64,000 nt of DNA from Deltaproteobacteria bacterium (GCA_013151915.1 JAADHJ010000044.1:329-64328), one strand, 5' to 3'. Counted from the first letter of the stretch, positions 46,545 through 53,650 are shown. The notes: generated by a model not told the origin, from the letters alone. Program-made: numbers and translations.

Positions 46545-47047
46545 AAAAGTGTCCATTTTTACTTGACCATCTCAGCTTCCCTCTTCAGGCAAGACACTTC
46601 ATGGATTGTAATGGGCTTGGATCCAAGCATCTCTTCGTGGTTCTCCAGACCGCTAACATTGCTTTAGCCGGCCATGCACCAGAATGAGGTGTAGGTATAT
46701 ATAGTAAAATATATCAAGCATTATCACAGACTTCGAAAAGAGCGGGAGAATGACGTATAAGAAGCATCTTGCCTGGTTCTTACCTGTACTCGCAATCTCC
46801 TAGTTTAGACTGGACTGTAAACGGGTTTTTGAGGCATATTGCAGATGTAACTTGACGGCTTTCAAGCGGGCCGCAGGCGAAATCCCGCTCTAATTCTCAG
46901 GTATGTTTTGGCCTGCTTGGCGGATTGATCTCCAGGCTACATCCAACTCTATGTAGGTTGCCGGCGATCTGCTCTGGATTTGTCACATGTGTCTGATCGG
47001 GATCCTCAGTATCGTTATAGGGTGACATGAAAATCCCCATTAATTGA

Positions 47048-47270
47048 GGTTCATCCTGGAAATGAGTACCTGGATAAAGATCGGAATGGGTGGAAAACTA
47101 ATTTAACACCGTTCGGCACGGCTTCGCTTGCTCACAGCAGGCAGGGTGATACAGGGTTAAATTAAAAGTTTTGTGTCGGCTTATGCACAGGTCAAGAGCC
47201 AATTGACCGCGAAGTTAACGAAGTTTTGCTAAGGTTAAAACCAGGACCTTAAGGGGTTTGATCTTAGCCT
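47048..47270 (+). mobile_element. Left part of MITE, right end missing
   Basis: ggttcatcctggaaatgagtacctg; gaagttaacgaagttttgctaa..ttaaaaccaggacctta is shared with 28795-28835. Confidence 0.75.
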
Positions 47271-47358
47271 GTCATGCCATCTTGTCCGTCATAGTCTGGA
47301 AGGCGAAGTCGGAAGCTCAAAAAAAGACGGCGGGAACGGTTACGGAGCTGCTTCTGAT

Positions 47359-50474: not shown

Positions 50475-50663
50475 GGGACCCCCCCCCGGCTTTGCCGGGG
50501 GACCCGAATAGTTTGACAGTACCTGGAGTAAATGAAAGCCTCCCATCTATGAACCGCTGAAAGTTTACAGGCGAGGAGGCTTTCGTTGAACGATGTAAGA
50601 AGCTTAAGCCATATAGCATGGGACTGCAAGTATCGTATATTTTGGATACCGAAGTGTCGCAAC
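50475..50663 (+). mobile_element. IS200/IS605 left-end hairpin plus truncated tnpA
   Basis: ccccggctttgccgggg hairpin; TTG 50586 gives NDVRSLSHIAWDCKYRIFWIPKCR, like the TnpA N-terminus. Confidence 0.75.
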
Positions 50664-50705
50664 TCAGTGAACTACCACGGGTTCATGCCCGTGGTAGTTC
50701 ACTGA
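50664..50705. repeat. Perfect inverted repeat (18-bp arms, 6-nt loop)
   Basis: tcagtgaactaccacggg ttcatg cccgtggtagttcactga. Confidence 0.95.
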
Positions 50706-50878
50706 ATTACAGAACCAGTGAAAGAGCGAAACTGGACATCATTGATTACATCGAGGTGTTCTACAATTGCAACCGGCGTCATTCTTACCTTGAATATCTG
50801 AGCCCGAAAATATTCGAGGAAATACCGCTTGCCAAAATGGTTGCTTAAAAAAGTGTCCATTTTTACTTGATCACATCA
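50706..50878 (+). mobile_element. IS3 3' remnant with right TIR
   Basis: Closely matches 46400-46574, including aaaatggttgcttaaaaaagtgtccatttttacttga. Confidence 0.88.
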
Positions 50879-51328: not shown

Positions 51329-51417
51329 GATAAACCTCCCGATAGAAGCCGATGAGCAACCTCCTCATTAAATATAATAACAGAAACCCCGGGATTTTGT
51401 GGAAACGCGGGTGGATC

Positions 51418-51445
51418 TGGGGTCAAAGCTCAGATTCTCAGGTTT
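51418..51445. repeat. 28-bp inverted repeat, downstream arm of the RAYT gene
   Basis: tggggtcaaagctcagattctcaggttt; overlaps the stop codon. Confidence 0.92.
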
Positions 51446-52289
51446 CGAGGGCCTTGATGATTTGGCAAAGATAGTTGGGGTTCATACTCAGGTGTGACGC
51501 GATTTCCTTCAGTGGATATTTATATGTTCGGTAGGCCTGGAGGATAGCCTGATTCCTCAGTTTTCTGGAACCGTTCATTCCACTGAATACTTCAGCCAAA
51601 GGAAGCCTTCCAGTACTAAGTTGTGTGTTGTTGATACCGGTTTTTTGATTCATGGGTCCATACTGCTTCAGGATGTTTTTGATAAACTCATCTGACCCAA
51701 GAAAGAGTTGAAAGCGGATGTCAAGCTTTGTCCTGAAACCATCCATGTCCGCCTCCACAAAACGGACGTAATTCTCCCTGGCCTTTTTAACAGTGAAGCC
51801 GAACTGTTCCAGGAGCCAGCCCGTCGTTAATAACGGCGGTGTTTTGACCAGCCCGGCGGTAGCGCCGTAACTGCTCCATGGCCACCCGCTCGGGTGTTCG
51901 ACAAGCTTTGCGTCCCATGGATTTAGAGCAATGTACCGGCAGCAGTGGAGGAGGTAGGTATCCTTCTGAACAATGATGGCTTTGTAACGCCCCTGAAGGA
52001 CATGACCGACCCGATGGTACTTGTAGTTGAAGAATTGGGTGTAGACCTGATTAAGATACTTCATCCCTTTGGCCAGGTTGGCATCAGGAGTTTCAATGAG
52101 GAGGTGGTAATGGTTTCCCATGAGACAATAGGCGTGGCAGAGCCAAGTGAAGCGTTTAATGGTCTTATGGAAAATATTGAGGAACTTGATGCGGTCGGCA
52201 TCGTCATGAAAGATCATCATCTGCGCATTTCCTCTGCTCATGATATGATAAAGAGCACCCTCATACTGGATCCTCAACTGGCGTGCCAT
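51438..52289 (-). CDS. REP-associated tyrosine (HUH/Y1) transposase with C-terminal HTH
   Basis: MARQLRI...YHI.SRGN, AYCLMGNHYHLL, GHVLQGRYKA, YI.LNP, WSSY; RBS GGGAGG. Confidence 0.92.
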   Translation of the reverse strand: MARQLRIQYEGALYHIMSRGNAQMMIFHDDADRIKFLNIFHKTIKRFTWLCHAYCLMGNHYHLLIETPDANLAKGMKYLNQVYTQFFNYKYHRVGHVLQGRYKAIIVQKDTYLLHCCRYIALNPWDAKLVEHPSGWPWSSYGATAGLVKTPPLLTTGWLLEQFGFTVKKARENYVRFVEADMDGFRTKLDIRFQLFLGSDEFIKNILKQYGPMNQKTGINNTQLSTGRLPLAEVFSGMNGSRKLRNQAILQAYRTYKYPLKEIASHLSMNPNYLCQIIKALET

Positions 52290-52353
52290 AGCCGCTTGCC
52301 TCCCTGTTGAATGGGTATGGCAGGTAATAAGCAAAACCAGGGCCAAAAGGGAA

Positions 52354-52381
52354 AAACCTGAGGATCTGAGCTTTGACCCCA
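52354..52381. repeat. 28-bp inverted repeat, upstream arm of the RAYT gene
   Basis: aaacctgaggatctgagctttgacccca; 27/28 complementary to 51418-51445. Confidence 0.92.
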
Positions 52382-52384
52382 TAT

Positions 52385-53356
52385 ATGGCAATAGCTTTTT
52401 TCGCAGTTGTTTTTGGCCTGGCGCTCCTTGTTTGGAGCGCCGGCCGTTTCGTGGAGGGTTCAGCCTTCACCGCACGCCATTTTGGAATGCCGCCGCTCCT
52501 GATTGGCATGGTGATCCTTGGTTTCGGCACATCCGCGCCTGAAATGGTGGTTGCAGCGTTCGCGGCATCACAGGGCAATCCAGGCATCGCTCTCGGCAAC
52601 GCGTATGGTTCAAACATCACGAATATCGCACTGATCCTTGGGCTGACGGCCTTGATCAGTCCCCTCGCGGTCCATTCGCAGGTGCTGCGCAAGGAATTGC
52701 CGATTCTCATAGCCGTTACGGGCCTGGCCGCCTATCAGATTTGGGATGGCGAGATCACCCGTACCGATTCTCTGGTGTTGTTGGTCGTATTCGGCAGCCT
52801 GATGGTCTGGACCATCCTGCAAGGCCTGCGAAAAAAATCGGACGTTCTGGGAAGCGAGATGGAATATGAGCTCGAAGAACGCAGCATGCCGCTTGGCCGG
52901 GCTGTCTTTCGGCTCGTAATCGGCCTGACCCTGTTGATCGCAAGTTCCCGCATCCTGGTCTGGGGGGCGGTTGAGATCGCGCACGGTTTCGGGGTGAGCG
53001 ATCTGATAATCGGCCTGACCATTGTGGCCGTGGGTACTTCGCTGCCGGAGCTTGCTTCGTCGGTGATCGCCGCCCGCAAAGGTGAGCACGATATTGCATT
53101 GGGCAACGTTCTTGGCTCCAATCTTTTCAACACATTGGCCGTTGTAGGCATCGCAGGGACGATTCACCCCCTGGCCGTGGGGCCGGAAATACTCGGCCGT
53201 GACGTTCTGGTAATGGCGGTACTAACCGTCGCGCTCTTCGTCATGGGCTATGGATATCGGGGTCCAGGGCGCATCAACCGGCTCGAAGGCGCGGCGCTGC
53301 TTGCCTGCTACATCGGCTACATCGCCTACCTGGCGACCAGTGTCTTTGGCCGGTGA
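52385..53356 (+). CDS. Calcium/sodium antiporter (CaCA, YrbG-like)
   Basis: Alpha repeats GTSAPE / GNAYGSNITN and GTSLPE / GNVLGSNLFN. Confidence 0.93.
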   Translation: MAIAFFAVVFGLALLVWSAGRFVEGSAFTARHFGMPPLLIGMVILGFGTSAPEMVVAAFAASQGNPGIALGNAYGSNITNIALILGLTALISPLAVHSQVLRKELPILIAVTGLAAYQIWDGEITRTDSLVLLVVFGSLMVWTILQGLRKKSDVLGSEMEYELEERSMPLGRAVFRLVIGLTLLIASSRILVWGAVEIAHGFGVSDLIIGLTIVAVGTSLPELASSVIAARKGEHDIALGNVLGSNLFNTLAVVGIAGTIHPLAVGPEILGRDVLVMAVLTVALFVMGYGYRGPGRINRLEGAALLACYIGYIAYLATSVFGR

Positions 53357-53650
53357 AGGGCCGCCAATTCGATTCCGCTTTTGGGAACTGAACCGGCGCC
53401 TGACGCGATTGGCTGGCTTCGCCAGGAATTACCTGGTGAATTTACGGCGTTACTCTTCCATTCATACCCCCTTTCGGAACGATTCTGCTAAACTTACACA
53501 GACTGTTCCATCCAGGGAGTCCACTATCCCTTGACAGTTGTAAAAAAAAGTCAAAAAATTCCGGTGGGAGGAGCAAATGAGCATCTACTTCCACAAGGGC
53601 AACTTAAGAACTGAACACAATTTCTGCTTTCTTCGAGGAGAATACGCACG

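Follow-up and report, generated by a model that had tools for sequence, protein, structure and literature searches.

Elements of the IS200/IS605 type have no terminal inverted repeats; they carry subterminal hairpins, are associated with a conserved left-flank target tetra- or pentanucleotide, and are usually present in several identical copies. REPtrons, reportedly known from Nunvar in 2010, Bertels and Rainey in 2011, Ton-Hoang in 2012, and the structure 4er8, are said to combine a RAYT (TnpA_REP) gene with REP or REPIN sequences. A third arrangement, in which RAYT-like genes are flanked by terminal inverted repeats (TIRs) instead of REPs, has been named the TIRtron, and its enzyme the TIRYT (TIR-associated tyrosine transposase) (Di Nocera, De Gregorio & Rocco 2013, BMC Genomics 14:522, PMC3733652). 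Many of these TIRs have the motif GGGGWSAS (it defines the main TIR group and not all TIRYTs), and some overlap the 5' or 3' end of the gene (PMC3733652). Some also belong to moderately abundant repeat families that occur as singles, dimers, or groups, an optional feature of the class (PMC3733652). Subsequently, 20 of 26 TIRYTs were placed in TnpA_Y1 subclass 2.1 (Quentin et al. 2018, BMC Genomics 19:475, PMC6006769), whose defining features are a domain of the Bac_DnaA_C, HTH_23, or HTH_28-like type at the C terminus and a lack of REPs (PMC6006769). Our searches found no work on TIRYTs later than these two papers (PMC3733652 / PMC6006769), so the puzzle of a HUH enzyme with TIRs in place of hairpins is the one already published for the class.

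We examined one such locus within a window of 64,000 nucleotides (the whole stretch of DNA analysed, C17:329-64328 of a 2.28-Mb genome in 60 contigs). We conclude that positions 51418-52381, a cassette of 964 bp in all, very likely constitute a TIRtron, with a TIRYT gene bracketed by two 28-nt TIRs beginning TGGGGTCA; how arms and enzyme may cooperate is proposed in the last section. The layout is that of a class already named, which the preliminary description had overlooked along with the dispersal of the arm, and the locus adds no new kind of element; the cassette is a real, well-preserved, and ordinary member of the TIRtron class. Its features are as follows.

51418..51445, plus strand: 3' terminal inverted repeat (gene-end arm); its inner 8 nt, ..ACC TGA, are the end of the last two codons and the stop
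51438..52289, minus strand: TIRYT gene, 283 codons and stop, start ATG 52289 (ORF reading and homologue alignment)
51444..51566, minus strand: C-terminal three-helix helix-turn-helix (HTH) domain, residues about 242-282 (AlphaFold2)
51927..52256, minus strand: HUH/Y1 catalytic domain, residues 12-121 (Pfam Y1_Tnp, IS200-like transposase, E=1e-10)
51933-51935, minus strand: catalytic-type Tyr119 in the RYIxLNP motif (invariant in 30 homologues)
52104-52112, minus strand: HUH motif, H60-Y61-H62 (invariant in 30 homologues)
52290..52353, minus strand: leader of 64 nt between the 5' arm and the ATG, which is preceded by a GGGAGG ribosome-binding site
52354..52381, minus strand: 5' terminal inverted repeat, 1 base unlike the other arm (C for T)

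The arms, the enzyme, and the antiporter gene

A repeat finder located the inverted pair at 51415-51445 and 52354-52384 (31 nt, 94% complementary). Its 28-nt core TGGGGTCAAAGCTCAGATTCTCAGGTTT, that is TGGGGTCAAAGCTCAGAT(T/C)CTCAGGTTT, lies at 51418-51445 on the plus strand with 0 mismatches and at 52354-52381 on the minus strand with 1 mismatch, and the pairing of 27 of 28 positions is the one given in the preliminary description of this DNA. That the pair arose by chance or through faulty assembly is hardly credible: the core found 0 matches in 100 dinucleotide-preserving shuffles, the same pair recurs in independent assemblies from several sources, and the locus lies inside a 134-kb contig. 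The shuffles and the arm pairs of homologues together refute such a reading.

The stop codon of the gene (TGA, 51438-51440, minus strand) sits within the left arm, and the right arm ends at 52381, 3 nt short of the antiporter ATG at 52385 (plus strand); both placements had been described correctly. The accompanying claim that the pair encloses exactly the gene was wrong, as 64 nt separate the 5' arm from the start codon. We take ATG 52289, not TTG 52391 of the longest ORF, to be the true start because all 30 aligned homologues begin MAR(Q/P)LRI, and the length of the leader follows from this choice. Taken with their flanks and on either strand, both arms fold no better than shuffles (z = +0.1 to +1.1). 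As this applies to all four strand/arm versions, the arms are not REP-like, in keeping with the earlier statement that they are not hairpins. Rfam gave chance-level matches only.

The protein had been described as a RAYT-like HUH/Y1 enzyme, and the profile and fold matches agree. In addition to Y1_Tnp, it matches NCBIfam NF047646 (REP_Tyr_transpos) at 53.9 bits, under the curated cut-off of 80, and a profile search of solved structures aligned TnpA_REP (4er8) across the tyrosine helix. The AlphaFold2 model (mean pLDDT 71, moderate quality) has 4er8 as its best fold match (E=1.2e-5), followed by the TnpA proteins of IS608/ISDra2. H60, Y61, H62, Y119, N123, and P124 are invariant in 30 homologues, and the tyrosine lies in a RAYT-style motif, R118-Y119-I-A-L-N123-P124. 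The C-terminal helices (residues 242-255, 260-267, and 271-282) are modelled with pLDDT 84-91; HTH_23 is a weak match in the window protein (E=0.0036, below the Pfam cut-off), and homologues have HTH_23/HTH_38/HTH_28 matches above or near cut-off.

Compared with the known classes, the locus overlaps only partly with REPtrons and with IS200/IS605 elements. As in REPtrons, the catalytic domain is structurally closest to 4er8, and a single-copy gene lies between inverted copies of a short, dispersed repeat whose doublets fold as hairpins. In contrast to REPtrons, the arms are not palindromes and have no GTAG head (the head is TGGGGTCA), the protein has an extra 160 residues with the HTH, its score falls short of the NCBIfam RAYT cut-off, and the arm copies, about 22, number in the tens and not the hundreds. 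The HUH/Y1 fold and catalytic motifs are shared with the TnpA proteins of IS608 and ISDra2, whereas the window element has TIRs, has no hairpins, has no conserved flank outside its tip, and has no identical copies. With TIRtrons it shares a RAYT-like Y1/HUH enzyme that is longer than RAYTs and carries an HTH at its C terminus, TIRs that are not palindromic and have a GGGG(A/T)(C/G)A head, and a 3' arm that overlaps the gene end; the GGGG(A/T)CA motif named in the preliminary description is correct. It differs from the class in three details. The inner two thirds of the arm (AAGCTCAGATTCTCAGGTTT) represent a subtype apart from the commonest type, GGGGTCAGGTCTTG; the tip has A as its eighth base in place of C or G; and the leader of this element and its closest relatives is 64-68 nt, whereas most relatives have one of about 20-35 nt. 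The assignment is unaffected by these differences.

On its other side, the 5' arm occupies the 30 nt ahead of ATG 52385 of the CaCA-type antiporter gene, and its whole ribosome-binding region. There is no Shine-Dalgarno sequence before this ATG; on the plus strand, the arm has GAGGA at 52360-52364, 8 nt ahead of an in-frame TTG at 52373, and homologues of the antiporter begin no more than a few residues away from there. For these reasons the cassette probably supplies or replaces the translation-initiation region of the antiporter, and an influence on its expression is plausible. The GAGG on the antiporter side is created by the single mismatch between the arms. A scan for promoters and terminators found no more sites than in shuffles, with a weak terminator-like call on the minus strand of the arm.

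In geometry only (an inverted pair of arms, one of them directly against the start of the antiporter gene), the cassette would also suit an invertible switch, in which recombination between the arms flips the 900-bp segment and alters antiporter expression. We consider this very improbable. Y1 HUH enzymes such as IS608 TnpA and TnpA_REP are single-strand strand-transfer nucleases and are not known as invertases, and those two proteins are the best fold matches here. The same bracket stands beside unrelated genes in relatives, and no promoter-like site faces outward from the element.

The bracket around homologous genes

The protein collection holds >7,800 homologues of the window protein. The closest are 67-72% identical in amino acids and derive from four independent assemblies, in which their neighbours are unrelated (a peroxidase; TAtT with an MscS-like channel; a HIT protein). 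They have the same arm pair, with the 5' arm 64-68 nt ahead of the ATG, and in 7/7 of the closest homologue loci the 3' arm starts 7 nt ahead of the stop codon's end. Third codon positions are only 41-44% identical (silent sites are saturated) versus 82-96% for the arms, and in one relative (L121, 71% amino acid identity) an arm is identical to the window left arm at 28/28 positions. Outside the arms identity is about 25%, as expected at random. Also conserved among the closest homologues (window, L019, L020, and L024; L121-L123) is the arm-proximal part of the leader (TTTTTCNNTTTGGCCC..TTTTGCT). The tip of the window arm, GGGGTCAA, agrees with GGGGWSAS at 7/8 positions; the closest relatives have GGGGTCAG or GGGGTCGG.

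A wider survey covered 93 homologue loci, gathered with an alignment query, drawn both from the organism's own bacterial family and from named genomes across many phyla, including Nitrospirota, Thermodesulfobacteriota, Acidobacteriota, several proteobacterial classes, and Bipolaricaulota. Most have an analogous, GGGGTCA-tipped bracket with arms beginning GGGGTCAGGTCTTG. Anchored, GGGTC-headed arm pairs were found at 63 of the 93 loci, which have the GGGTCA head in common. Within these 63 elements, left and right arms agree at variable positions in a proportion of 0.65-0.98, compared to 0.28-0.66 expected; conservation ends at T-GGGG, and no conserved flank was found outside the arm tip across the 63. 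Sequence comparison thus indicates that the arms are under strong selection, are co-evolving within each element, and delimit a conserved unit. The earlier notion of a compact unit holds up well, as gene and repeats are conserved together around homologues.

A tandem copy of 5-12 nt of flank plus GGGGTCA occurs just outside 20 of 123 arms of related elements (about 16%), where about 1 would be expected. The window's own arms lack this scar. Such copies were seen at loci L042-L117 (e.g., L056, L065, L079, and L092), where there are sometimes several.

Public contigs of 970-972 bp that contain the gene only (e.g., L121 and L122, Logan, 972 bp) could be taken as a sign of a multi-copy element. 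We rejected this reading because the contigs start and end in the 30-31-nt inverted repeat, which is impassable for a k=31 de Bruijn assembler. Contig sizes in protein search tables should accordingly be read as copy number only with caution. That certain short contigs in public data terminate exactly at the repeat shows that it disturbs assemblers.

Dispersed arms, relatives, and mobility

Genome-wide, the 28-mer occurs in 6 copies at <=3 mismatches and in 14 at <=6 mismatches; a profile search of the genome found about 22 arm copies at E<0.05, about 20 of them orphans. The family consensus is TGGGGTC(G/A)NA(C/G)CTCA(G/C)AT(C/T)CTCAGGTTT. Four orphans are of the window subtype (..TCAAAGC/TCAGAGC..), and the remainder have ..TCGNACC... 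Among all arm copies of the genome, only the window pair brackets an intact gene. Dispersal of the TIR is a further likeness to the TIRtron class, represented here by the orphans, a doublet on contig C56, and a cluster of three arms on C47. The doublet (C56:5118-5187, tail-to-tail, 70 nt) folds as a hairpin at -18.3 kcal/mol (z = -4.8).

Contig C2 carries a 292-bp arm-to-arm unit (C2:5990-6281) and three gene-less units of about 120-140 nt that are 92-97% identical (C2:1662-1799, C2:6160-6281, and C2:7004-7169). Similarity among the gene-less units starts at the arm tip, and the flanks outside differ. This pattern indicates that the genome has copied gene-less units that carry an arm at the tip, with the boundary of the copied segment at the arm tip.

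Many orphan arms cluster on accessory-rich short contigs (C2:1-10296, C55:1-7500, C41:1-2500, and C52:59000-61422). Their neighbours, named by eye from translated ORFs without a family search, are of toxin-antitoxin, Fic, and Abi-like kinds and include ParE/Phd-like, HigB/HigA-like, and nucleotidyltransferase/HEPN pairs, Fic and AbiE-like proteins, an SRA-HNH protein, and an IS256 fragment.

The same genome has a second, unrelated TIRtron outside the window (C43:12578-13690). It encodes a 329-aa TIRYT paralogue that is 40% identical to the window protein and has a DnaA-C-like tail; a perfect inverted repeat of 27 nt, GGGGACGTAGTTAAGTTGTTAAGTTGT, brackets the element, with the 3' copy spanning the stop codon.

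The arm subtype, with 19 copies in this genome at the chosen stringency, has 8, 7, 7, 11, 2, and 1 copies in six further members of the bacterial family, sister genera among them, and 0 copies in six genomes from other families; with the reversed pattern as a control, every genome gave 0 matches. A family member whose assembly is only 77% complete (G007) has arm copies, including 70-nt doublets, and no TIRYT match. The congeneric genome G001 retains mere fragments of TIRYT-type genes and lacks the antiporter. The sole neighbour that it has in common with the window is a gene for a 133-aa membrane protein (88% identical), and the homology runs to window position 51404, 13 nt before the arm. About 100-150 nt past the end of homology, the G001 locus (L032, C25:15788-19265) has CAGGTTTC followed by the reverse complement of PNYLCDILKRLET, which is the last 13 codons, the C-terminal signature of the TIRYT subfamily to which the window gene belongs. 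These 45 nt are probably left over from a related cassette that occupied the corresponding position; the matching segment is short, and the outer part of the arm is poorly alignable. The remnant is read through from a thermonuclease-like ORF, and a different repeat lies between it and the shared flank.

We infer that the gene-bearing unit itself may be mobile. In the preliminary description the element "may be mobile," and comparison across relatives was to reveal its presence, absence, or inversion. Indirect support comes from the copying of gene-less units and from a low G+C content (48.4%, versus 55.0% for the genome and 54-59% for the flanks). On the other side, the gene DNA is single-copy in the genome, the window element has no target-site duplication, and no clean empty site was found in a relative, with G001 being without the antiporter. 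The changed contexts of the 67-72% identical homologues could reflect ordinary loss of synteny over a long divergence, not transposition. Overall, the cassette here is a single and probably old resident located directly at the 5' end of the CaCA antiporter gene.

Much of this would also fit a domesticated partnership of the REPIN/RAYT kind, in which the gene is static and vertically inherited, only doublets and solo arms propagate, and the bracket is simply the nearest repeats. Consistent with that idea are the single-copy gene, the about 20 orphan arms with a hairpin doublet among them, an arm type that several genera of a single bacterial family have in common and that is missing outside that family, and the probable relic at the corresponding place in the congeneric genome. 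Against it, the gene is absent or decayed in most relatives that keep arms, and is therefore dispensable; in homologues the arms keep nucleotide-exact distances from the start and stop codons, which argues for a unit and not for neighbouring repeats; the G+C content is under that of the host; and the family is patchy over many phyla. We therefore regard domestication as somewhat unlikely and favor the TIRtron reading, in which arms and gene form one element.

The cassette neighbourhood is a mobile-element graveyard. Just upstream are a C-terminal fragment of an IS3-type integrase (50618-50848) and a near-perfect palindrome with 21-nt arms (50661-50708). The segments 47038-47318 and 53427-53530 match many separate contigs of the congeneric genome and are thus dispersed repeats. 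On C55 and C52, orphan TIR arms are likewise followed by pieces of 47038-47318, a hint of repeat blocks with a mosaic structure. Another short repeat family with a palindromic core (..GTCCGCC(A/G)TAGC..GCGACGGCGGA..) occurs, for example, at C55:1850-1960, and copies flank the membrane-protein gene of G001 on either side (L032). Its 10-mer CCGCCRTAGC is present 54 times in the genome and 0 times in the window, and this family may be a true REP family.

Proposed mechanism and significance

In the TIRtron reading, the arms would be the recognition and cleavage sites of the enzyme. The HTH tail would read the conserved tip, and the HUH/Tyr119 centre would nick one DNA strand near it, likely after GGGGTCA; we place the recurrent break there because the tandem flank-plus-GGGGTCA copies lie outside 20 of the 123 arms. 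The inverted arms may pair in single-stranded DNA in the fashion of REPINs, bringing both ends together for excision or copying, and the paired arms would then be the substrate. Given that inverted arms can pair, as in the C56 doublet, a REPIN-like mode is the most economical model. Most likely, the enzyme would serve chiefly short arm-bounded units, in trans, and would act on its own gene-bearing unit only rarely.

A more far-reaching version, which we put forward as a speculation that is rather unlikely to be right, is that TIRYTs perform a distinct kind of HUH transposition without a pre-formed hairpin. The HTH would dock on the nearly invariant tip, the nick would fall after GGGGTCA, 7-8 nt inside the arm, and the arms would be the two halves of a split hairpin, able to pair only when the DNA is single-stranded. 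The doublets and gene-less units would be the true replicators, and the window cassette one intact source of enzyme. If this were true, the arm doublets and gene-less units would make up a REPIN-like population that persists across several genera of the bacterial family, and the window cassette would be the sole intact enzyme source among the nearest relatives, still servicing about 20 arms. The flank-plus-GGGGTCA tandem copies in relatives would be scars of the TIRYT reaction.

For annotation, the cassette accounts for a "transposase" gene, for scattered 28-mers, and for an antiporter gene without its native upstream region. TIRYTs are a very large family spread over many phyla, and what is puzzling about them is that members of a hairpin-reading enzyme family use plain inverted repeats. 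The locus studied here is a clean and intact example; with its small cognate repeat family, relics in sister genera, and another, unrelated TIRtron elsewhere in the genome, it could serve as a compact test case for this puzzle of hairpins versus TIRs.
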